From Candidatus Saccharibacteria bacterium RIFCSPHIGHO2_12_FULL_41_12 (GTDB taxonomy: Bacteria > Patescibacteriota > Saccharimonadia > Saccharimonadales > 2-12-FULL-41-12): a stretch of DNA of 64,000 nucleotides. The translations under genes were made by a program, and so were the position numbers. Under the pieces are notes generated by a model. That model made no database searches. It saw only the letters and a program-made list of their open reading frames with translations, and was not told the origin of the DNA. The stretch is from NCBI GenBank assembly GCA_001790445.1, contig MGCQ01000009.1:150500-214499 (forward strand), written 5' to 3'. Positions within the stretch are counted from its first letter, which is position 1. Each line of letters opens with the position of its first letter. Positions 11,840-63,715 of this stretch are shown here, one piece after another.

Positions 11840-12349
11840 ATGTCAAAAATGTCATTTCCTGAAGAAAAGAAACATATAGAAGTCGGCGGTGGTGATGATT
11901 GGGCTAAATTAAAACTTGCTGGGGTGTTAGAGACACTTGGTCTGGGGCCATGTGTCGGAGTGGGTGTTTATAGCAAAGTACCAAAAATAGGTTTTCTAGG
12001 GCACTTTATCGTCGGAAATACCGAACAATTAAATACTATGTTACAAGATGCGGAAAAAGAAATTAGGTATCCAGCAACAGCACAGCTATGGGTTGGTGGC
12101 GGTTCGATAGCACCTTTAGAAGATTCAGAATTAAGCAACGAAATGATTTTAGAATATCGTGCCACAATAGAACAAGCACTAGAAGATACATTTGGCCCAT
12201 TAGAGGGTAGGATCAAAAGAGATTGGCTAAATGAAAATTCATGTATAGACTGTAGTTTAAATGTTAGGACAGGAGAAATTCATACTGAGATAACACCAGT
12301 AATACCAGATGATAATGATCCTCCGCCAGAACACAGAACCCTCTATTGA
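11840..12349 (+). CDS. Hypothetical protein with CheD-like (LGxC...H) signature
   Basis: 169 aa. ETLGLGPCVGVGVYSKVPKIGFLGHFIV resembles the CheD deamidase T-LGSCV...GG-x-H block. LWVGGGS resembles the later K-x-x-GGA strand. Confidence 0.35.
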   Translation: MSKMSFPEEKKHIEVGGGDDWAKLKLAGVLETLGLGPCVGVGVYSKVPKIGFLGHFIVGNTEQLNTMLQDAEKEIRYPATAQLWVGGGSIAPLEDSELSNEMILEYRATIEQALEDTFGPLEGRIKRDWLNENSCIDCSLNVRTGEIHTEITPVIPDDNDPPPEHRTLY

Positions 12350-21160: not shown

Positions 21161-21226
21161 AATTAATTTTAGAGAATAAGATTTTTTTGAACTACTTTCC
21201 GCCGACACCAAGGTGTCTGATGCGTC

Positions 21227-21644
21227 ATACTTTCTTGTGTTGACAAGAAAGTATGCAAAGAAACAACAGGCTGTTTGAAAAATACATATTGATCCAAACA
21301 AACCAAAAGCCCTGTTTCTGCGGGACTCCTTCCAGTCGGGCTAAAGCCTAGTCCTCAAAACAAGGAGCTTTTGATCTGTTCGTTTCATCTGTTTTTCAAA
21401 GGGCCTGATCAGTAGTAGTCTAAAGTCATGATTAATAATATTTCCATAGGAAATATACAAAGGAAGCCTGGGTCAGGCCATGAACCAGACCTGAGAGGTT
21501 TCGTAGAAATAACAACTATTAGCTGAGGACTGTTTGAGCAAAGCGAGTTCCGCAAGCTGTTGTTATTCTCTACAAGAAATCTCATCAAGTATGTTCATAG
21601 CCTGTTGTTTCTTTGGTTACTTTCTTGTCAACACAAGAAAGTAG
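21227..21644 (-). repeat. Intergenic structured repeat element, full-length copy A (core on minus strand)
   Basis: Bounded by hairpins ATACTTTCTTGTgttgACAAGAAAGTAT (left) and TTACTTTCTTGTcaacACAAGAAAGTAG (right). The ends are inverted (GCAAAGAAACAACAGGCTG / CAGCCTGTTGTTTCTTTGG). The conserved core GGGACTCCTTCCAGTCGGGCTAAAGCCTAGTCCTC is at 21322-21356. Confidence 0.8.
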
Positions 21645-21735
21645 CTCGTGCAAGGCACTTCAGTGCCGACGAAAGGCTGTTATGTAGTGGCAACTCTTGA
21701 TTTTACAGAGGTAATACGCTATAATCTGAGTCTAT

Positions 21736-21825: not shown

Positions 21826-21900
21826 GGTCTCATCGTCTAACGGTTAGGACACCAGGTTTTCATCCTGGCAATAGGGGTTCGATTCCCCTTGAGATCACCA
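21826..21900 (+). tRNA. tRNA-Glu (anticodon UUC), CCA encoded
   Basis: Hand-folded cloverleaf of 75 nt. Acceptor GGTCTCA/TGAGATC (one G-U), D stem GTCT/GGAC, anticodon stem CCAGG/CCTGG with loop TTTTCAT, 4-nt variable region, T arm AGGGG-TTCGATT-CCCCT, discriminator A plus CCA. Confidence 0.9.
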
Positions 21901-22143: not shown

Positions 22144-23277
22144 TTGACTAGAATACCAAATATTGTTAAAATTGGTAATGTGAATAACAATAACATCTTA
22201 ACTTTAGATTTCCCTCCAAATCTCGATAAGATATGGACAAAGGATTTTGCATTACAATTGGCTGCAACAGAAGGCTCTATTAGTGCATTGAACCAAGCCG
22301 TATCACTATTGCATAATCCAAATCTACTTATGCGACCTTTGCTAACAAAAGAAGCAGAATCCAGCTCTAGATTAGAAGGCACACAAGCATCAATGGATGA
22401 CGTTTTTAAGTCAGCAATGCGACCAGACTCTGAGCAGAGTGATGATGTTCGTGAAATTATCAATTATCAAAACGCATTGTTGCGTGGTGAGCATATCATA
22501 AAGACAAGACCACTAAATCAGGTGGTTATTAGACAAATTCACTCAGTTCTTATGAGTAACGTTAGAGGTGGTTCAGCCAATCCAGGTAGCTTTAGAACTG
22601 AAAATGTTTGGATTGGTGTACTTGGAACAGGAATGGGAGAAGCGAGATATGTGCCACCTGATGCTGTGCATATTCCTGAACTAATGAAAAATGTCGAAGA
22701 GTTTATGTCTAATTCACAAATGCACCCCCTAATAGCTTGTGGATTATTGCACCATAGATTTGAAGCAATTCACCCTTTTAAAGATGGTAATGGTAGAACA
22801 GGCAGGTTACTAATAACTTTATTCCTTCTTAAAACTCAAAAGTTATCTAAGCCAATGCTGTATCCAAGCGGATTTTTTGAAAAAAATAAAGATATTTATG
22901 TAAAAGCTCTTAATGCTGTTGATGTGAATCAGGATTGGTATAGTTGGTTGCTATTCTTCCTTAAAGCAATAGAAAAACAGGCAACAATATCATTGGGCGT
23001 GGCGAGTGAGATTGACAAATTATTCAAAGATTACAAGAGATTGATACAAGAGACCGCAGCTCACATGGCTTTAGGCAACGTTCTAGAATTTTGTTTTAAG
23101 CAGCCGTATGTTACGGTTGGACTTATATCAAGTGCTCTAGGTATGCCAGCTAATACTGTCCGAAGGTATATAACAACCCTTGAAAGCAAAGGCATATTAG
23201 ACCAACCTTATACAATCGCACGCGGCGAAAAAGTTTATACTAACAAAGCTCTTTTAGAGATCTTAAGAAAAATATAG
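22144..23277 (+). CDS. Fic family protein (AMPylase-type) with C-terminal winged-helix
   Basis: 377 aa. The Fic motif HPFKDGNGRTGRLL is present, and the N-terminal (S/T)xxxE(G/N) inhibitory-helix-like SSRLEGTQAS is upstream. TTG start as listed. Confidence 0.85.
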   Translation: MTRIPNIVKIGNVNNNNILTLDFPPNLDKIWTKDFALQLAATEGSISALNQAVSLLHNPNLLMRPLLTKEAESSSRLEGTQASMDDVFKSAMRPDSEQSDDVREIINYQNALLRGEHIIKTRPLNQVVIRQIHSVLMSNVRGGSANPGSFRTENVWIGVLGTGMGEARYVPPDAVHIPELMKNVEEFMSNSQMHPLIACGLLHHRFEAIHPFKDGNGRTGRLLITLFLLKTQKLSKPMLYPSGFFEKNKDIYVKALNAVDVNQDWYSWLLFFLKAIEKQATISLGVASEIDKLFKDYKRLIQETAAHMALGNVLEFCFKQPYVTVGLISSALGMPANTVRRYITTLESKGILDQPYTIARGEKVYTNKALLEILRKI

Positions 23278-29667: not shown

Positions 29668-30007
29668 TTGTGTGGGGCAAACCCAAACGAACACTACAAA
29701 ACAGTAGCGCCAACGAGCCGAGAAGATATCTTCTCGGTCTGCACTACGCTTATACTCTGTTTTGTAGCATTCATTCGACTTTGCCAGACAACACTAAAGT
29801 TCTATGCGGACGTAAAGCCTTCAGGTTTGGCTCACGAAAAAACAGATGAAATAACCTACGAAACAAAGGATTGTTTTGAGGACCAGGCTTTAGCCCGACC
29901 AGAGGGAGTCCCGGAAAAACATCTTTTGGTTTGGAGGTTATTTCAATCACGTTTTTTTGTAAGCCGAGTTTCTTTGCTTACTTTCTTAGTCGGTACAAGA
30001 AAGTAAG
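29668..30007 (+). repeat. Intergenic structured repeat element, half copy C
   Basis: Shares with 63300-63632 the box GCACTnCGCTTATACTCT (29741-29758), GGCTCACnAAAAAA, the core GAGGACCAGGCTTTAGCCCGACCAGAGGGAGTCCC (29878-29912), TTATTTCAATCACGTTT, and an identical terminal hairpin TTACTTTCTTAGTCGGTACAAGAAAGTAAG (29978-30007). The 112-aa ORF listed here is a shadow. Confidence 0.8.
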
Positions 30008-30155
30008 ATATAAACGTATTGGAGATAGTTGGAGCAAAGCCACACACAATAAACGACGTAAATTGTGGTAAAATAGAGTTTACATTGTTGGTTCAATTAC
30101 AAAAACAAAGATATATTCGGTTAAACTGCGAGAGAGGGACCAACAGTAGTAGATA

Positions 30156-34634: not shown

Positions 34635-35046
34635 TGGTGGAGCTGGTGGGTATTGCACCCACGTCCATCGGTTTTACTTTGACTGGTCTTCTACATATTT
34701 AGTTTATTTACATATCTTTGAGGGTACCGGCTAAACAAACAAAACGATATCTTCGCATTTCTCATTGTCTTAGAGAATTCCGTGGAGAAAAGCACAAAAT
34801 TCTAGCAACCAGATAATATAACACGATTTTGATCTATCTGGTGTCGATCAAATCATGGTTTAAGACAAGCTTAAACTTGCGTAAGCTGGTGTGCTGATAG
34901 AAGCAACAAAATTATTAACCTTGTCGTTCATAGCATCAGCTATACGCTGAGTAAATGTTTTTGCATTTATTCAGTTTGTCTATAACGCTGACAAGCGATA
35001 TGCGAACCAATCTGTAAAAGTCCAATGTCGAGCTTAAATCAGCCCC
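34635..35046 (-). ncRNA. ssrA: tmRNA (SsrA), about 412 nt
   Basis: The minus strand begins GGGGCUGAUUUAAGCUCGACA... and ends ...GGACGUGGGUGCAAUACCCACCAGCUCCACCA. The acceptor stem is GGGGCUG/CAGCUCC with a G3:U70 pair, followed by ACCA. The T-arm-like helix is GUGGG-UGCAAUA-CCCAC. An extended -10 gTGcTATAAT (35056-35061) lies 9 nt upstream of the 5' G. Confidence 0.85.
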
Positions 35047-46741: not shown

Positions 46742-47242
46742 ATGAATAAAAAAGAACAACCAGTTTTTAAGTTAAGTGATCGTATCTTGACAAATATTGA
46801 TTTGGCCAGAGCGATCCGACAGACTAAACAACTTGATGATTATTTTCATCAAAATAATCTTCGTGGTGGGGGTCAACCGACTGCCATATCAAAAGCAGGA
46901 CGTGTTGTAGAAGATTTAGCGCGTGACAATAATCTTTCCATTCTTGAGAAGAAAGACAGGAAACTACTTCTTAAACAGTTGGCAGTAATACAGGAGCATG
47001 CGCCCGTGGTGCATTTTAGCTTTCCTTCGGAGCCTTCACGTGGGGCGCTAGCTAATATTGTCGGTTGGCTGAGGAATAATGTAAATTTTTACTGTCTTGT
47101 CAGCGTGGGACTTGAGCCAATTATCGGCATTGGCTGCATTGTTCGCACAGAGAATAAAATCTTTGACTGCAGTCTTAAAAATCGGCTGAACGGCAACAAA
47201 GATCTGCTTAAGCAAGTTATACAAAAGGCAACAAAGTCGTGA
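46742..47242 (+). CDS. atpH: F-type ATPase subunit delta (OSCP)-like protein
   Basis: 166 aa. The C-terminal half, VHFSFPSEP...[31 protein letters not shown], follows the OSCP pattern (V.SA..L......V...VDP.LIGG..V..G....D.S....L). Confidence 0.5.
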
Positions 47243-48665
47243 GTGAAAACCAGACCAATTTCCAGAAAATTATAGATAGCGGTAAGCCTGTTGGTGAAGT
47301 TATCGGAGTTGATAAGTTTTTAGTCAAGGTGAAGGGTTTGCACCCAGTTCAGATACATTCACTTGTAATGTTTGAAGATGGCAGTAAAGGCATAGTCAAA
47401 CAAGTTGATGAGCAAACAGTTTCGGTCTTACATCTAGGAGACGAGACAGTTCAGAGAGGTTCTTTGGTCGGGGTCCAGCATCAAGAACTAGTGACCAAAG
47501 TAGGTAAAGAATATATTGGTAGGGTGGTCTCAGTCATGGGTAAACCGCTTGACGGCAAAGGCCCGATTGTGGCAGATGGAACATGGCCAGTTTTTTCTCC
47601 TGCTCCACCGCTTTGGAGCCGCAAACTTCTGGACAAACAACTTGATAGCGGAGTGACGACAGTTGATTCAATTTTTCCACTTGTTCGAGGCCAGAGAATA
47701 GCTGTTTTGGGAGATAGTAAATCCGGCAAAACGACGCTGGCAACCCAACTTGCCATCAACCAAAAAAATACTGATCAGATAGTCGTTTATTGCATGATTG
47801 CAAAAAGGCGAAGTGATATAGATGCAATAATCACAAAATTAGAGGCTACCGGAGGAATTGAGTCAGCTATCGTCGTTGTATCAACTATGTTTGAATCTCT
47901 GATAATGAGTTATTTAGCGCCGTACGTCGCTGTATCTATGGCAGAATATCTTTGGCAAAAATGTGACCAAGATACGATTATTATTTATGATGATTTGACT
48001 TCTCATGCACATGCCTGTCGAGAGATCGCGCTTTTATCTGGGACCAGCCCGGGTAGAGACTCATATCCTGGTGATATGTTTTATGCGCACTCAAGTTTGT
48101 TGGAGCGCGCCGGAAGGCTTGAGAGTAATGGGAGTTGTTTGACGAGTATACCTATTGTATTAGCTGCAGGAGGAGATATCACAGCTTATTTGCCCACTAA
48201 CATTATGTCTATAACAGATGGTCAGTGGATTTTGGACATGGATGTTTTTAGAAGTGGTGTGCGTCCTGCATTTAGCATTGGGCTGAGTGTGACACGTGTG
48301 GGTGGAGTGGGTCATAACAAGCGACAAAAGCACATAGCAGCCTCGCTTATGAAGGTTTTAGCGTTATATCGTGAAGCAGAAGAATTTTCTCACTTTGGGT
48401 CAGAACTTACACCAGAGTCAAAAGCTGCTCTAGAGCTGGGAAAGAATATTTTTGCCTTGTTAAGTCAAGGACCAACAGACGTGTACAGTACTTACGCTCA
48501 GCAACTCATGCTTGACATAGTTATGGAAGCTGAAGCAGGTCTAAAGATTGATATACCTAAGCTTAAAAGTCTTGCTAACGAGTATTCTGAAAAAATCCAA
48601 AAGGATGAAGATTATGATAAAGTCAGGGACAATCTCAAGAAAATGATACTGGTGGAGGTTAAAAA

Positions 48666-48669
<4 letters not shown>
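47239..48669 (+). CDS. atpA: F1-ATPase alpha-subunit homologue (divergent, short)
   Basis: 476 aa. Motifs: [18 protein letters not shown] (Walker A), [11 protein letters not shown] (Walker B region), [35 protein letters not shown]. Confidence 0.85.
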
Positions 48670-50829
<2,160 letters not shown>

Positions 50830-50838
50830 AAATATTAA

Positions 50839-51144
50839 ATGATGGCAAAAGATACTACAGTTAAACCTGATGAGAAGTTAAACCAAGAGCAGTCGCTTCC
50901 TAAAGATCTCACGGTCAAACTTTATTCGCCCTACAAAGTTTATTTTAATGATTTGGCAGATACTGTCTCTGCAGTGAATAGAACAGGCCCATTTGATATT
51001 CTTTTGGGTCACCATAATTTTCTGACGTTGTTAGAACAATGTGAAGTTGTTATTCGTAATAAAAAAAATATTCAAAAATTCAAGATATCCAGAGGGATTA
51101 TGCACGTCAAAAAGAATAAAGTAACGATATTTCTTGACGTCTAA
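50839..51144 (+). CDS. atpC: F1-ATPase epsilon-subunit homologue (beta-sandwich only)
   Basis: 101 aa. LTVKLYSPYKVYFNDLADTVSAVNRTGPFDILLGHHNFLTLLEQCEVVI...ISRGIMHVKKNKVTIFLD follows the epsilon N-domain pattern. There is no C-terminal helical hairpin. Confidence 0.65.
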   Translation: MMAKDTTVKPDEKLNQEQSLPKDLTVKLYSPYKVYFNDLADTVSAVNRTGPFDILLGHHNFLTLLEQCEVVIRNKKNIQKFKISRGIMHVKKNKVTIFLDV

Positions 51145-51166
51145 AATTAGTTTTAACATCGTTGCA

Positions 51167-51189
51167 ATTAAAGCCTGGAAGGCTTTAAT
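51167..51189 (+). terminator. Hairpin after atpC
   Basis: ATTAAAGCC-tggaa-GGCTTTAAT. There is no clear T-run, and the repeat element follows immediately. Confidence 0.4.
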
Positions 51190-51193
51190 CACC

Positions 51194-51630
51194 ATACTTT
51201 CTTGTACTAACAAGAAAGTATGCAAAGAAATAGCAGGCTGTTGACCAGACTTGATGGGATTTCTTGTCGAGGATTACAACAGCTTGCGGAACTCCCCTCC
51301 GTGGCCTTCGGCGACGAAGGGTCAGACAGTCCTCGCCTAATAGTTGTAATCTCGACGAAATCTCTCAGGTCTGCTCAAGGCCTGACCAACAATCTGTATA
51401 TTTTCTATGAAAATATTATTAATACTTTAGACTACTTATTTAGCCCCTTTTAAAAACACCTTCGGTTATTGCAACTACAAACAGATTAATCTGAGGACCA
51501 GGGCTTGTCCCCGACTGGAAGGAGTCCCGGAAGAGTAGTCTGTTTGTAGTTGTAATAAGCTAGGGTAATTGTTTTTAAACCGGGGTGGCACTTTTTGCTT
51601 ACTTTTTCTTGCTAGAGAGAAAAAGTAAGG
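51194..51630 (+). repeat. Intergenic structured repeat element, full-length copy B (inverted relative to copy A)
   Basis: Left hairpin ATACTTTCTTGTactaACAAGAAAGTAT, then GCAAAGAAATAGCAGGCTG. A long imperfect hairpin spans 51246-51373. The core GAGGACCAGGGCTTGTCCCCGACTGGAAGGAGTCCC is at 51493-51528. The right hairpin is TTACTTTTTCTTGCTAGAGAGAAAAAGTAAGG. The 77-aa ORF listed inside is a shadow. Confidence 0.8.
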
Positions 51631-51761
51631 TGATAGAAGCCCTGCCAAGGGCTTAGCGCAAGAGATTATTATATATCTGTTATACTATCGTTTTTGTCGA
51701 CACAAAAATGGAACAAGAAATTGCTTGCTTGCAAGCCTGCTAAAAGATGAAAAAAAGATAA

Positions 51762-60208: not shown

Positions 60209-60790
60209 TTAGAATTTTGTTTTAGGCATTTGTTTTTGAAATCTTTTGATAAGAACTTTGTCATTGTCAATATTTATTGCTTCAACGTAGCTTACATACT
60301 TTGCAACATTGTATGTCGTACAGACTTCCTCTACAGTTGGACGGCACGGTAGAGGGTGTACCCACACGCTTTTTTGGAGCTGAAAAAATCCAAGATTCCT
60401 GAGTTTACCTGTCAGTGCACGTCTTCCAGAACCTTGCTTCTCAGGGATGTCGTACATAACTAGCCGCCATTTCTTGTCCCATTTTTGTTTGCCAGGTATA
60501 GTTAGATTGCTAAAGTTATTATTAGTGTGTCTGAGCTTACCCTTTTTTGTAATCCGTAACCCGTGCTCATACTCTCCAGCGAGGTAACCTTGAGCTTTCA
60601 TGTAGTATATTACTCTTTTTATCTCACGTGCGCGCTGTCTCTCGTCAAATTTTTTGTAATATTTTTGTAAAGGTTTGTCCAGAGCTAGGACGATATTCGG
60701 AGCTACAATAACAGATCCAATAGCAGAAGTAGTAATAACGAATTTTAAAACGTGATCTAACATTTTCGCAGTATTTTGATTCTTATTCAT
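60209..60790 (-). CDS. PaaX-like regulator (wHTH + Cas2/VapD-fold C-domain)
   Basis: 193 aa. WDKKWRLVMYDIPEKQGSGRRALTGKLRNLGFFQLQKSVWVHP follows the PaaX C-domain pattern (WdG.W.lv.y.iPe..r..R..lr..L...Gf..l..svW). Confidence 0.5.
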   Translation of the reverse strand: MNKNQNTAKMLDHVLKFVITTSAIGSVIVAPNIVLALDKPLQKYYKKFDERQRAREIKRVIYYMKAQGYLAGEYEHGLRITKKGKLRHTNNNFSNLTIPGKQKWDKKWRLVMYDIPEKQGSGRRALTGKLRNLGFFQLQKSVWVHPLPCRPTVEEVCTTYNVAKYVSYVEAINIDNDKVLIKRFQKQMPKTKF

Positions 60791-61340: not shown

Positions 61341-63272
61341 ATGACAACGCAAGAAATTAGACGTAAATATTTAGAGTTTTTTAAATCAAAACAGCACAAA
61401 GCGATTGAACGGGCTAGTTTGTATCTAAAAGACGACCCGACGACGTTGTTTACTGGTTCTGGGATGCAGCCACTGATCCCGTATCTGCTGGGCAAGCAGC
61501 ATCCTAAAGGAACTCGGCTGGTTAACAGCCAAACGTGTTTTCGTGGTGTAGACGCAGACGAGGTTGGCGATAATCGGCATACGACTTTCTTTGAAATGCT
61601 TGGCAACTGGTCTCTTGGCGATTATTTTAAAAAAGAACAGGTCGCTTGGTTCTTTGAATTTCTAGTAGATGAAGTTGGACTTGATCCTAACAAACTATAC
61701 GTGTCATGTTTTATTGGCAGTAAAGAGCACGGTATCCCTAGGGATGAAGAAACAGCCAAAATCTGGCAAGAGCTCTTTGAGTCTAAGGGTATCGACGCAA
61801 AAATAGTTGAAATTGGCAGTGCAAAAGATGGAGATAAACTAGGTATCAAGCCTGGCGAGAGGATATTTTTCTACGATGATAATGAGAACTGGTGGAGCCG
61901 TAATGGCGGGCTAGATACAACGCCAGTTGGTGATCCTTGCGGTCCTGACAGTGAAGTATTTTATGACTTTGGCGAGCAGAATCACGACACCAGCTTTGGT
62001 CAGGCACATCCAGCTAGCGAGTCAGGGCGATTTATGGAAACTGGCAACCAAGTTTTTATGGAATATCGTCGCACAGAAAAGGGTTTTGAGCCTTTAGCCA
62101 AGAAAAATGTAGATTTTGGCGGAGGTTTGGAGCGAATCGCAGCTGCCGCAATTAATTCCCCAGATATTTTTAACATAAGTTTGTTAAAACCGATTATCGA
62201 AAAACTAGAGGGATTATCCGGCAAAAAATATGACGAACATACAGAAAGTATGCGGGTGATTGCTGATCATCTGCGTGGTGCAACATTTTTATCGGTTGAC
62301 GGCGTAGAACCAAGCAACAAAGAGCAAGGTTACGTTATGCGTCGTATAATTCGCCGGGCGATGGTTAAGGCCCATGATCTGGGTATACAGCAGAACTTTC
62401 TGCAAGAAGTTGTGCCAGTTATTGCAGATCTGTACCACGATGACTTCCCAGAAGTTGCCAAAAACCGAGAAAAGATTATCGACACGTTAGTTAAAGAAGA
62501 AGAAGCCTTCCGACAAACTCTCCGCAAAGGTTTACACGAGTTTGGAAAACTAGTGGGTGCTCATTGGGATTCTTTTGGTTGGGATGAAAAGCATTGGGAC
62601 CAGCCTGATCAAGCACTAGGTGGTGATATTATTTTTAGACTATATGACACCTATGGATTTCCTATAGAGCTTACCAAAGAAGAAGCTATCAAGCGTGAGA
62701 TAAAAATTGCTGATGATGCAGACAGGGTTTTCGACAAACTAATGAAAGAGCAGCGGGAACGGTCGCAGACGGCTGGCAAGGGTGTATTCAAGGGCGGACT
62801 GGCGGATCACTCTGAGGATACTAAGAAGCATCACACAGCGACGCATTTGATGTATGAGGCACTCAGGCGGGTATTAGGTGATCATGTGGTTCAAAGGGGT
62901 TCTAAAGTCACAGCAGATAGAACTCGTTTTGATTTCTCACATCCTGAGAAAATGACAGATGAACAAAAGCAGAAAGTAGAACAAATTGTCAACGAACAGA
63001 TAGCCAAAGACCTAAAAGTATCATTTGCAGAATATAAGACAGACGAGGCCTTCAAAATGGGCGCCAAAGGCGCCTTTGGTGACAAATATGGCGACACGGT
63101 CAAAGTTTATACAATGGGTAAGGATGGCGAAAAACCATTTTCTATAGAAATATGTGGAGGTCCTCACGTTGATCATACAGGGCAACTTGGGGAAGGTGGA
63201 AAACACTTCAAAATAACCAAAGAAGAATCCTCCTCCGCCGGAGTCCGCCGCATCAAAGCCAGCCTGTTGTAA
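61341..63272 (+). CDS. alaS: Alanine--tRNA ligase, short form lacking the C-terminal C-Ala/DHHA1 domain
   Basis: 643 aa. MTTQEIRRKYLEFFKSKQHK, FTGSGMQPL, RHTTFFEMLGNWS. The editing-domain motifs are HTATHLMYEALRRVLG and ICGGPHV. The protein ends soon after the editing domain. Confidence 0.9.
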   Translation: MTTQEIRRKYLEFFKSKQHKAIERASLYLKDDPTTLFTGSGMQPLIPYLLGKQHPKGTRLVNSQTCFRGVDADEVGDNRHTTFFEMLGNWSLGDYFKKEQVAWFFEFLVDEVGLDPNKLYVSCFIGSKEHGIPRDEETAKIWQELFESKGIDAKIVEIGSAKDGDKLGIKPGERIFFYDDNENWWSRNGGLDTTPVGDPCGPDSEVFYDFGEQNHDTSFGQAHPASESGRFMETGNQVFMEYRRTEKGFEPLAKKNVDFGGGLERIAAAAINSPDIFNISLLKPIIEKLEGLSGKKYDEHTESMRVIADHLRGATFLSVDGVEPSNKEQGYVMRRIIRRAMVKAHDLGIQQNFLQEVVPVIADLYHDDFPEVAKNREKIIDTLVKEEEAFRQTLRKGLHEFGKLVGAHWDSFGWDEKHWDQPDQALGGDIIFRLYDTYGFPIELTKEEAIKREIKIADDADRVFDKLMKEQRERSQTAGKGVFKGGLADHSEDTKKHHTATHLMYEALRRVLGDHVVQRGSKVTADRTRFDFSHPEKMTDEQKQKVEQIVNEQIAKDLKVSFAEYKTDEAFKMGAKGAFGDKYGDTVKVYTMGKDGEKPFSIEICGGPHVDHTGQLGEGGKHFKITKEESSSAGVRRIKASLL

Positions 63273-63299
63273 ATTATTTATTATTAAAATAACGTCTGT

Positions 63300-63632
63300 G
63301 GAATCGGATCATGCCCGAAAAGAGAGCGTTACATGCCGGGAAACTTTCTGTTTCTCGGATTGCACTCCGCTTATACTCTCTTTTAAGGCATGATCCGATT
63401 CCATCAGGACTTAGAACCCCTACTTTGTTACAGATTTAATTCTCGCATCCTGGCTCACAAAAAAACTGATGAAAATGACTTTATGGCAAAGGACAGTTTT
63501 GAGGACTAGGGCTTGTCCCCGACCAAAGGGAGTCCCACAGAAACATCTTTTGGCAGGAAGTTATTTTCAATCACGTTTCTTTTGTAAGCCGAGTTTCTTT
63601 GCTTACTTTCTTAGTCGGTACAAGAAAGTAAG
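63300..63632 (+). repeat. Intergenic structured repeat element, half copy D
   Basis: 16-bp stem GGAATCGGATCATGCC (63300-63315) / GGCATGATCCGATTCC (63387-63402). Box GCACTCCGCTTATACTCT (63362-63379). Core GAGGACTAGGGCTTGTCCCCGACCAAAGGGAGTCCC (63501-63536). The terminal hairpin at 63603-63632 is identical to that of copy C. Confidence 0.8.
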
Positions 63633-63715
63633 ATATCAATAACAGAAAGATAATAATATACTAGCGGGGGATAGATTAAATAAAGTTTTGCCAAGAAAGA
63701 CATAAGAGACCAATC

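Follow-up and report, generated by a model that had tools for sequence, protein, structure and literature searches.

Anatomy of an intergenic element in a Saccharibacteria genome: probable divergent dimers of strand-specific, pseudoknot-bearing units of an unannotated cross-phylum family

Introduction

The genome of Candidatus Saccharibacteria bacterium RIFCSPHIGHO2_12_FULL_41_12 contains an intergenic element, herein termed element A, that begins and ends with hairpins of the same sequence family, and the question that this locus raises is what kind of entity it represents, a transposable element recognized by its ends, a structured RNA, or a signal that acts in single-stranded DNA (ssDNA). 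Element A lies in a 64,000-nt stretch of contig MGCQ01000009.1 (positions 150,500 to 214,499; assembly GCA_001790445.1), the whole of which we refer to as the window and in which all coordinates are given. The original prediction, made from the letters of the window, placed the element at 21227-21644, counted four copies of it, and offered two readings, a miniature inverted-repeat transposable element (MITE) on account of the inverted ends and a structured RNA or ssDNA element on account of the conserved helices. The analysis presented herein makes it very probable that element A is a divergent dimer of strand-specific units of ~200 nt, each with a pseudoknot module, and that the units belong to an unannotated family that crosses phylum boundaries. 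For the function of these units we put forward a more tentative proposal.

Results

Architecture of Element A

The ends of element A are hairpin-bearing inverted repeats, as had been predicted. The left-end hairpin has the form ACTTTCTTGT-GTTG-ACAAGAAAGT (21229-21252) and the right-end hairpin the form ACTTTCTTGT-CAAC-ACAAGAAAGT (21619-21642), and the inverted stretches CAAAGAAACAACAGGCTG and CAGCCTGTTGTTTCTTTG lie just inward of them. Six matches to the terminal hairpin pattern and four to the core CCCGACN5GGAGTCCC are present in the window, where chance would give 0.03 and 0.07, respectively. The inverted repeat is real, but it is longer than had been thought, with arms of 83 nt (21190-21272 and 21599-21681) that are 77% complementary. 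The true span of the element is ~21190-21690, as supported by these arms, by its fold, by its absence from the nearest relative (locus L002) and by two nhmmer unit matches. The fold is far more stable than that of shuffled sequence on either strand (z ~-12), and the minimum-free-energy structure recovers the three interior helices that had been folded by eye, namely a long hairpin (21486-21593), an AT-rich hairpin, and a stem around 21322-21356. As anticipated, the element has no open reading frame (ORF) of substance, since those that overlap it encode only 55-59 amino acids.

The two arms are best understood from what lies between them. Each half of element A matches a different unit profile, and a second locus, element B (51165-51665, assigned as a whole to neither strand), has the same construction with its interior the reverse complement of that of A. 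In both elements two units stand back to back with their 5′ ends at an AT-rich center and their 3′ ends pointing outward, so that each DNA strand holds one unit in the sense orientation. The two halves of A, and likewise those of B, have unrelated interiors apart from a shared 3′ module. The supposed terminal inverted repeats of A and B are this module, present once in each of two units of opposite orientation.

The units themselves follow one plan, which from 5′ to 3′ consists of locus-specific closing stems, a long stem of free sequence that carries a near-invariant apex, an H-type pseudoknot, and a short 3′ hairpin. They fall into two types according to the apex, with the consensus GGCGAGGACUGUYUGAGC-hairpin-CGAGUUCCGCAGCC in type 1 and UGAGGACYAGG-hairpin-CCCGACYRRARGGAGUCCC in type 2. 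In element A the right unit is of type 1 (plus strand, 21440-21690; nhmmer match 21476-21645, E = 5.9e-26), and its sense strand folds 5.7 kcal/mol more stably than the antisense. It has the apex GCTGAGGACTGTTTGAGC-AAA-GCGAGTTCCGCAAGC at 21522-21557, followed at 21602-21615 by the 5′ strand of pseudoknot stem S1, CTGTTG, which complements the loop CAAC (21629-21632), and by loop L1, GTTTCTTTG. Stem S2 is the hairpin GTT-ACTTTCTTGT-CAAC-ACAAGAAAGT-AGC (21616-21645), and a 3′ hairpin, H, with the sequence GGCAC-TTCA-GTGCC and then GACGAAAGG, completes the unit at 21654-21676, all on the plus strand. The left unit is of type 2 (minus strand, 21190-21405; nhmmer match 21404-21193, E = 2.8e-52), with a sense strand more stable by 4.8 kcal/mol. 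Its parts, also on the minus strand, are the conserved core GAGGACTAGG-hairpin-CCCGACTGGAAGGAGTCCC (21322-21356), in which the sequence of the enclosing stem differs among copies, the L1 pyrimidine strand GTTTCTTTG (21256-21264), which mirrors the S2 pyrimidine strand, the S2 hairpin CAT-ACTTTCTTGT-GTTG-ACAAGAAAGT-ATG (21226-21255), and a hairpin H (GACACC..GGTGTC, followed by GGCGGAAAG; 21204-21217) that is homologous to the right-hand one. Similar 3′ hairpins, followed by GACGA or ACGAA, come after the pseudoknot in a Saccharibacteria metagenome-assembled genome (MAG; locus L011) and in Ralstonia. Between the 5′ ends of the two units lies a central AT-rich palindrome (21438-21456, without strand assignment) that, read by eye, is ~85% conserved with the center of B.

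The claim of four copies stands as far as the loci are concerned, and all four lie directly 3′ of a gene end, in keeping with the predicted position downstream of operons. They are unequal in build, and exactly six clear units are found at them by nhmmer. Two are of type 1, at 21476-21645 (+) and 51382-51195 (-), and four of type 2, at 21404-21193 (-), 51445-51662 (+), 29830-30039 (+) and 63453-63660 (+). Element B is thus composed of a type-1 unit on the minus strand (~51165-51400) and a type-2 unit on the plus strand (~51430-51665). Elements C (29668-30065) and D (63290-63690) have a different build. In C a 5′ module (29668-29830) precedes a type-2 unit on the plus strand (~29830-30014) and a locus-specific closing stem joins 29668-29680 with 30040-30056; D is built as C, with its 5′ module at 63290-63455 and its type-2 plus-strand unit at ~63455-63640. 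The fold z-scores of B, C and D are -11, -7 and -9, respectively. The 52 nt to the right of the terminal hairpin of C (30014-30065) pair with its left end (GTTTGTGTGG with CCACACACAA), and the closing stem so formed arrived with the insertion, as both of its segments are missing from the nearest relative.

For the 5′ modules of C and D the minus strand gives the more stable fold (-66.4 versus -49.2 and -71.1 versus -66.8 kcal/mol), and the two modules share a conserved loop, TTCTCGG.CTGCACT.CGCTTATACTCT, on 16-bp stems that are entirely different. They are probably degenerate left-hand units, and possibly a third, degenerate unit type. The same pattern holds for the window copies in general, as their loops are conserved while their stems are entirely different in sequence and yet complementary. 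A and B are 72% identical, and C and D ~72-83% identical outside the 3′ module; the 63-nt 3′ module of D is 97% identical to that of C.

The 3′ Module as a Pseudoknot with a Putative Triple Helix

A widespread part of the unit is its 3′ module, for which the statistics given here refer to 148 non-redundant instances. It is an H-type pseudoknot of the order S1-L1-S2, in which S1 forms between the 5-6 nt that precede L1 and the hairpin loop. The consensus of L1 is UUUCUUUG, and that of S2 is NNN-ACUUUCUU...AAGAAAGU-N′N′N′. The three positions on either side of ACUUUCUU...AAGAAAGU are fully paired in 131 of the 148 instances, with more than 12 types of pair. S1 is also supported, as the anchored helix has a mean length of 3.09 compared with 2.11 ± 0.07 when the loops are permuted, with 48 distinct helices represented. 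In an ungapped alignment of 26 sequences, 90.5% of the cells are paired versus 78.9% after shuffling, the covariation score is 0.292 versus 0.107 (reached in 0 of 500 shuffles), and four of the five S1 pairs change on both sides, whereas the slid controls collapse.

The L1 strand shows a further regularity. It is the mirror image of the S2 pyrimidine strand, and the number of T residues before the C in L1 equals the number of A residues before the G in the purine strand (27, 44, 28 and 3 instances on the diagonal, with few off it). This match of run lengths holds in the parallel register and thus fits Hoogsteen U.A-U and C+.G-C triples, not an alternative Watson-Crick helix. Antiparallel Watson-Crick pairing of L1 with the purine strand, which is possible for symmetric variants, was considered and set aside in view of the parallel register of the run-length correlation. 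Moreover, joint changes are seen in L1 and both strands of S2. In the right unit of B the three strands read CTTTTTG / ACTTTTTCT / AGAAAAAGT, in locus L129 TTCTCTTTG / ACTTTCTCTT / AAGAGAAAGT, in loci L121, L190 and L245 TCTTCTTTG / ..CTTCTG / CAGAAGAAAGT, and in Pasteurella, Aeromonas and Burkholderia TTTCTTTTG / ACTTTTCTTTG / CAAAGAAAAGT, and in locus L172 all three strands also change together. From this covariation we infer that L1 lies in the major groove of S2 as U.A-U and C+.G-C triples.

Selection on a Single Strand and the Conserved Apex

The long stem shows the same kind of constraint. In the consensus fold of type-1 units obtained with RNAalifold, 23 of the 41 pairs have compensatory changes across phyla, and the pairing GAGGAC/GUUCC alternates with GAGCAC/GUUGC. 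Within S2, G.T wobbles outnumber A.C mismatches by 51 to 2. Folding energies favor the sense over the antisense strand in all six window units, by 4.5-16 kcal/mol, and in 28 of 32 foreign type-1 units, with a mean difference of -6.6 kcal/mol, and the two halves of one Ralstonia dimer differ from each other through compensatory changes within each half. The wobble bias, the stability of the sense strand and the compensation within halves together indicate that selection acts on each unit as a single strand of fixed polarity and not on duplex DNA or a cruciform. Of the two readings originally offered, that of a structured RNA or ssDNA element is supported, in that paired stems persist while their sequence is replaced.

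The apex is the counterpart of these freely varying stems. Across 46 non-redundant type-1 units, UGUYUGAG and CGAGUU hardly vary on the two sides of a small hairpin that does, and covariation links a G/C position to its C/G partner. A canonical stem leads into a 5-nt bulge, which is followed by tandem G.A pairs and then by Watson-Crick pairs; as judged from sequence, this arrangement is similar to a kink-turn whose bulge is unusually long and conserved. In the canonical kink-turn a canonical stem is followed by a 3-nt bulge, tandem sheared G.A pairs and a non-canonical stem. The tandem G.A arrangement and the covarying canonical stem of the apex would fit this scheme, while its bulge comprises five near-invariant nucleotides (UGUYU). 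Such conservation points to recognition by a protein or to a tertiary contact. In eukaryotic 5.8S rRNA a conserved motif at the 3′ end has the same sequence as the apex 11-mer CUGUYUGAGCG (e.g. at 21529-21541), which is probably a coincidence.

Distribution of the Family

The copies are by no means confined to the window, as members were found in several phyla. The 3′-module pattern occurs in at least 120 metagenome contigs among the matches listed and in 54 IMG/VR contigs, ranging from AT-rich to very GC-rich, and blastn finds the module, unannotated, in Ralstonia (105 records), Burkholderia, Aeromonas, Variovorax, Pasteurella multocida and Ilyobacter. The module had no blastn match in the INPHARED phages, and the Pasteurella dimer had none in 5,426 E. 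coli genomes. The window type-1 units align over ~185 nt with units from GC-rich metagenome contigs, and nhmmer identifies 68 units that span apex to pseudoknot in the 2.6 Mb of loci that were collected. The type-2 core gave no exact match in a pattern scan of 185,579 species genomes and thus seems to be lineage-restricted, whereas the 3′ module is widespread. In several IMG/VR contigs (L241, L242, L223 and L231) several dispersed repeats of 100-330 nt with 90-100% identity include the pseudoknot motif. The family thus reaches a high density in some viral or proviral genomes as well. For two of these (L241 and L242) a concatemer or a small circular genome was considered as the source of the direct repeats and was rejected, since what is present is several dispersed repeats of this length.

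None of this corresponds to a known family. Rfam 15 gave no match at the gathering threshold in the window elements or in 17 foreign loci, and in a search at a permissive E-value, which included element A and a canonical foreign unit, the best hit had E = 0.25 or worse and none spanned an element. The possibility that Rfam already describes the element, raised with the original prediction, is thereby answered. ERIC/IRU and other E. coli repeats were rejected as identities, with no match in E. coli genomes. A literature search by sequence strings, organism and topic returned no description of the module, and its sole string matches were to the 5.8S rRNA 3′ end and were judged coincidental. Similarly, a 2026 review of RNA triple helices, in which the prokaryotic entries are only riboswitches and group II introns, contains no such bacterial element.

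Solo units make up the majority of the family, and the divergent (-/+) arrangement recurs at more than 16 further loci, which include the dapF-DUF484 gene interval of P. multocida (upstream of xerC) and the glgB-glgX interval of R. pseudosolanacearum GMI1000; no convergent pair of units was found among the collected loci. Most foreign dimers are imperfect palindromes over their whole length, with an arm identity of 70-90%. Ends of 45 nt that are 96% identical were also seen. In dimers of the Burkholderiales type (L146, L157, L182 and L192) the center is ~100 nt long, non-palindromic, and ends in a terminator-like hairpin and T-run, and it may represent a separate small transcript between the units. 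Units favor the 3′ ends of genes. The upstream gene is co-oriented with the unit in 60 cases versus 32, the downstream gene is convergent in 71 versus 42, and only eight units lie between divergent genes. A 3′ hairpin of some kind follows the pseudoknot in 110 of 144 units. An intrinsic terminator was rejected as a general explanation, as a sense hairpin with a T-run is found in 12 of the 144 units compared with 18 in the reverse-complement control.

Empty Sites, Age and Mode of Spread

The relatives of the window identified through PcrA are all Saccharibacteria or Patescibacteria MAGs, and the nearest, L002, has 78% PcrA protein identity (the others ~55%) and is syntenic with the window across the region. 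Site A, which extends from the terminator of the PKD-domain gene to the tRNA-Glu promoter, measures 60 nt in this relative versus ~580 nt in the window, and site C, between pcrA and an rpf-like gene, 22 nt versus 416 nt. The DNA that is additional in the window corresponds to ~21170-21690 at A and to 29668-30065 at C. The relative has no remnant of the element at either site, and no unit was found by nhmmer in its 22 kb. Both sites are thus cleanly empty, which means that A and C are DNA held by one lineage and missing from a close one, and together with the members in several phyla this supports the conclusion that the elements are inserted or acquired DNA. An ENA metagenome contig that is 99.9% identical to the window also contains A. 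Among other Saccharibacteria, locus L011 has a solo 3′ module (12130-12230) consisting of pseudoknot, 3′ hairpin and GACGAG with no 5′ domain, 35 nt past the pcrA stop codon, the very gene end that bears element C in the window, and a related element (L028) has an all-U version of the 3′ module. The window is densely occupied, with six units in 64 kb compared with about ten in 1.34 Mb of other Saccharibacteria loci (~one per 130 kb).

A comparable presence/absence difference exists in Ralstonia. The GMI1000 megaplasmid (L259, glgB-glgX) has a 450-nt divergent dimer, in the region of 302,150-302,720 of NC_003296, and strain YC40-M is without the dimer and keeps one 3′ hairpin; in strain CQPS-1 there is an extra tandem copy of the outer-hairpin segment. 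The strain without the dimer, which has a flank identity of 98.6%, retains its single 3′ hairpin within the outer inverted repeat, and it was not accepted as a clean empty site, as the retained hairpin equally fits a deletion between two palindromic hairpins and so is no proof of insertion there.

How such DNA moves is a separate matter. There was no target-site duplication at eight well-delimited dimers, and none was evident at A or C when compared with their empty sites. No Pfam match to a transposase, reverse transcriptase (RT), integrase or HUH enzyme was found among 40 scanned proteins of the window, 14 of which matched no family, and no repetitive extragenic palindrome (REP)-associated tyrosine transposase (RAYT, a Y1 transposase) was found in the window or in the flanks of the copies. 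Clustering of the ORFs within 3 kb of matches revealed no recurrent enzyme near the copies and gave only phage terminases and ABC transporters, the former at a frequency that, by a rough estimate, is about that expected by chance in viral contigs. The copies are 70-80% identical, with whole stems replaced, and are therefore old and not from a recent burst.

These data bear directly on the reading as a classical MITE. Such an element derives by deletion from a DDE insertion sequence and depends for its mobility on a transposase that acts in trans by binding its terminal inverted repeats, and its folding would be a by-product of the palindrome. The family does include small, non-coding, intergenic elements present in several copies, with terminal inverted repeats of 45-83 nt and a presence/absence difference with respect to a relative. 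Nevertheless, neither target-site duplications nor a matching transposase were found as described above, the window and the 2.6 Mb of loci contain no related full-length insertion sequence, solo units are the majority, and the halves of A and B have unrelated interiors under ends that are 3′ modules. Compensatory changes within each half, including those between the halves of one Ralstonia element, and the strong preference for G.T over A.C also speak against it, and the mirror-repeat covariation of L1 is not explained by protein binding to duplex DNA. We therefore depart from the original prediction on this point and regard a MITE as very improbable.

The constant geometry of the dimers invites a different scheme, in which a RT of the host or of an intron recognizes the 3′ pseudoknot of a SINE-like retro-element (SINE, short interspersed nuclear element) and copies the unit RNA, and a snap-back second strand then produces the divergent dimer. 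Snap-back cDNA would give precisely the order that is seen, an antisense copy, a turn at the RNA 5′ end and a sense copy, and triplex pseudoknots do occur in RT-associated RNAs such as telomerase RNA; the lack of target-site duplications also fits. On the other hand, no RT was detected among the window proteins or recurrently near the foreign copies in the searches described above, the units have no poly(A) or templated tail, and the scheme is wholly inferential. It is the least probable of the alternatives that we have weighed.

The Window Neighborhood

The surroundings of element A include other lineage-specific DNA. A Fic/DOC gene with a C-terminal helix-turn-helix domain (22144-23277) next to A is missing at the syntenic position of L002, where pyruvate kinase directly follows tRNA-Glu, so the gene is a second lineage-specific insertion. 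The tRNA-Glu(UUC) gene lies at 21826-21900 (+), and its sigma-70-like promoter, TTGATT-17-TATAAT (21697-21725), abuts the right end of A. Elsewhere in the window are a transfer-messenger RNA (tmRNA) gene at 34635-35046 (-) and, upstream of the alaS operon, a gene at 60209-60790 (-) for a 193-residue protein with a PaaX central Cas2-like domain. The housekeeping proteins are short (AlaS, 643 residues; AtpD, 434; AtpC, 101; regions 47239-51144 and 61341-63272), and for many surface or unknown proteins Pfam gives no match, two features that are typical of a reduced genome of the candidate phyla radiation (CPR).

Discussion

Based on the comparative data presented herein, we now put forward a hypothetical role for these units. 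We favor the explanation that they form a non-coding cassette that spreads horizontally and works in single-stranded form, probably as RNA, which would include a mechanism in which RNA 3′ ends are capped; this is a proposal that we hold quite possibly to be correct, and it ranks ahead of each of the alternatives without being established. According to this proposal the units would act as RNA, transcribed either as the 3′ part of the transcript of a neighboring gene or from an unrecognized promoter in the AT-rich center. The triplex pseudoknot and the 3′ hairpin would together form a compact cap, which would protect against 3′ exonucleases and set the end of the transcript, in a manner similar to the triple helix of the element for nuclear expression (ENE) and MALAT1 or to REP stabilizers. 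A dimer would offer such a cap to transcripts that arrive from either side and in this way serve both flanking genes. The invariant apex would be the recognition site for a factor, although its role is a guess, and so is the mode of spread, where the constant divergent geometry would fit snap-back, hairpin-primed copying of a single-stranded intermediate.

Any mechanism of this kind must be set against several observations that it does not readily accommodate. No sigma-70-like promoter was called inside A or B, including their AT-rich centers, and the gene upstream of A is separated from it by a strong terminator that may allow little read-through into the element. About one third of the units are antisense to their upstream gene. 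A hairpin with a T-run follows the pseudoknot in only 12 of the 144 units, and the terminator in some Burkholderiales-type centers would stop read-through before it reached the second unit. In addition, the triple helix is a putative one, deduced from covariation. Lastly, tolerance of G.T and triplexes of the pyrimidine motif are possible in single-stranded DNA too, so that both would fit ssDNA as well as RNA.

The last point leads to the possibility that the units work as ssDNA, folding on the strand that is exposed in replication, repair or transfer and serving for recognition by an enzyme of the HUH/Y1 type, as REPIN-RAYT and IS200/IS605 elements do, or as a single-strand initiation or priming signal. 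We consider this unlikely, but it remains a serious rival owing to the missing promoters and the weak bias of orientation with respect to neighboring genes. Both T.A-T and C+.G-C triplexes can arise in DNA, which also accommodates G.T pairs. Strand-specific hairpins that come after a conserved linear stretch 5′ of the stem foot, the inverted doublet as the standard arrangement, the lack of target-site duplications at the eight dimers and the extragenic placement between convergent genes are all in its favor. The evidence on the other side begins with the enzymes, as no Y1/HUH protein was found among the 40 window proteins (Pfam, 14 without a family) and none is recurrent near the 148 foreign copies. 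REP sequences, moreover, are normally lineage-specific, whereas the module has been conserved in different phyla. The apex has the appearance of an RNA kink-turn, some members end in a classic hairpin and U-run terminator on the sense strand, and the ends of IS200/IS605 elements lie on one strand and are not inverted.

The question of promoters is equally central to the idea that the units are free-standing small RNA (sRNA) genes, transcribed outward from a bidirectional promoter in the AT-rich center and with an action in trans, such as the titration of an apex-binding protein, while the triplex pseudoknot would do no more than stabilize the sRNA. The divergent arrangement is what a central bidirectional promoter needs, dimer centers are less GC-rich than their contigs and those of A and B are conserved, a terminator of their own is present in some units, the apex hardly varies between phyla, and paralogues with conserved loops and freely varying stems are what is seen in RNA gene families. 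Yet the promoter itself was not called in the centers of A and B, and a solo 3′ module without a 5′ domain directly after a stop codon (L011) also speaks against it. Six units in 64 kb of a reduced genome, as against ~one per 130 kb elsewhere in Saccharibacteria and none in L002, would also be odd for a housekeeping sRNA. We judge this idea to be rather improbable, slightly more so than an ssDNA element.

Returning to the capped-transcript cassette that we favor, its most specific form would be a new cross-phylum class of bacterial and phage non-coding RNA, in which a triple helix caps the 3′ end, a kink-turn-like apex recruits a conserved factor, and divergent dimers are spread by a single-stranded route that does not involve a DDE enzyme. 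In this full form the proposal is possible though doubtful; the likelihood that the unit constitutes a truly new class of RNA is substantial. If the proposal is correct, then Saccharibacteria, Pseudomonadota and Fusobacteriota, together with contigs classed as viral, share an unannotated structured element whose best-conserved part is a triple-helix pseudoknot, a motif whose known bacterial occurrences are in riboswitches and group II introns and not in interspersed repeats or at transcript 3′ ends. It would constitute a testable bacterial analogue of the eukaryotic and viral triple-helix RNA stabilizers, and a mobile cassette with neither target-site duplications nor a recognizable enzyme. 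Six units in 64 kb represent a notable investment for a CPR genome of ~1 Mb, and cultivable carriers exist in Ralstonia, Burkholderia and Pasteurella, among them B. cepacia ATCC 25416 with its aceF-lpdA locus. There is also a practical consequence, since in GC-rich genomes the units give rise to spurious small ORFs (with peptides such as FFGYFLL..KKVT and LSERSEF) that a covariance model would purge from annotation.

Comparison with Known Systems

By analogy, the units would work most like the REP/REPIN and ERIC-type structured intergenic repeats, with a 3′ module that resembles the triplexes of the ENE/MALAT1 and telomerase type. REP hairpins stabilize upstream mRNA. With the REP/REPIN sequences and bacterial interspersed mosaic elements (BIMEs) of Proteobacteria the units share an extragenic location enriched between convergent genes, strand-specific hairpins with a conserved 5′ stretch, inverted doublets and the lack of target-site duplications, although the likeness to the REPIN doublet, which is based on the divergent pairs in the window and at the more than 16 further loci, is architectural only. 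REPs are 20-40 nt long, lineage-specific and linked to RAYTs, and their head is of the GTAG type. The units described here are of ~200 nt with a multi-helix 5′ domain and a pseudoknot, cross phyla, have no RAYT in the window or the copy flanks, and have a hairpin preceded by TTCTTTG.

The ERIC/IRU, BOX, RUP and Correia-type repeats and MITEs are likewise small, non-coding, modular, intergenic and strongly folded, and are often found in transcribed 3′ regions. The units have no sequence similarity to them, no target-site duplications, and old copies with compensatory changes, and their triplex pseudoknot has no counterpart there. With DDE-type MITEs the inverted ends are held in common, but not target-site duplications, a parent insertion sequence (in the window and the copy flanks) or the near-identical copies of a burst. 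The palindrome-associated transposable elements (PATEs) of IS200/IS605 are also short and non-coding, with subterminal hairpins and no target-site duplication. Both hairpins of a PATE are on the same strand, its ends are not inverted, and a TnpA Y1 gene is present in the genome, none of which is seen in the window or the copy flanks. In A the loops GTTG and CAAC and their flanks are reverse complements and the units lie on opposite strands.

Among RNAs, the putative triple helix of the units resembles that of ENE/MALAT1, with a run of U.A-U triples that would be broken by a C+.G-C triple, placed near the 3′ end of the unit. ENEs are also found in transposable-element transcripts of plants and fungi. 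In the ENE a U-rich internal loop clamps the 3′ poly(A) or A-rich tail. In the units, by contrast, L1 of the H-type pseudoknot would supply the third strand, and the A-rich strand lies inside the unit with a hairpin after it. ENEs are eukaryotic or viral while the element described here is bacterial. The triplex H-type pseudoknots of telomerase RNA and of the SAM-II, SAM-V and preQ1-II riboswitches share with the 3′ module a pyrimidine-rich loop 1 that lies, or in the module would lie, in the major groove of stem 2. The module differs from them in its much longer stem 2 (13-14 bp), in its location 3′ of genes and not in 5′ untranslated regions, and in having neither a riboswitch match in Rfam nor a RT nearby.

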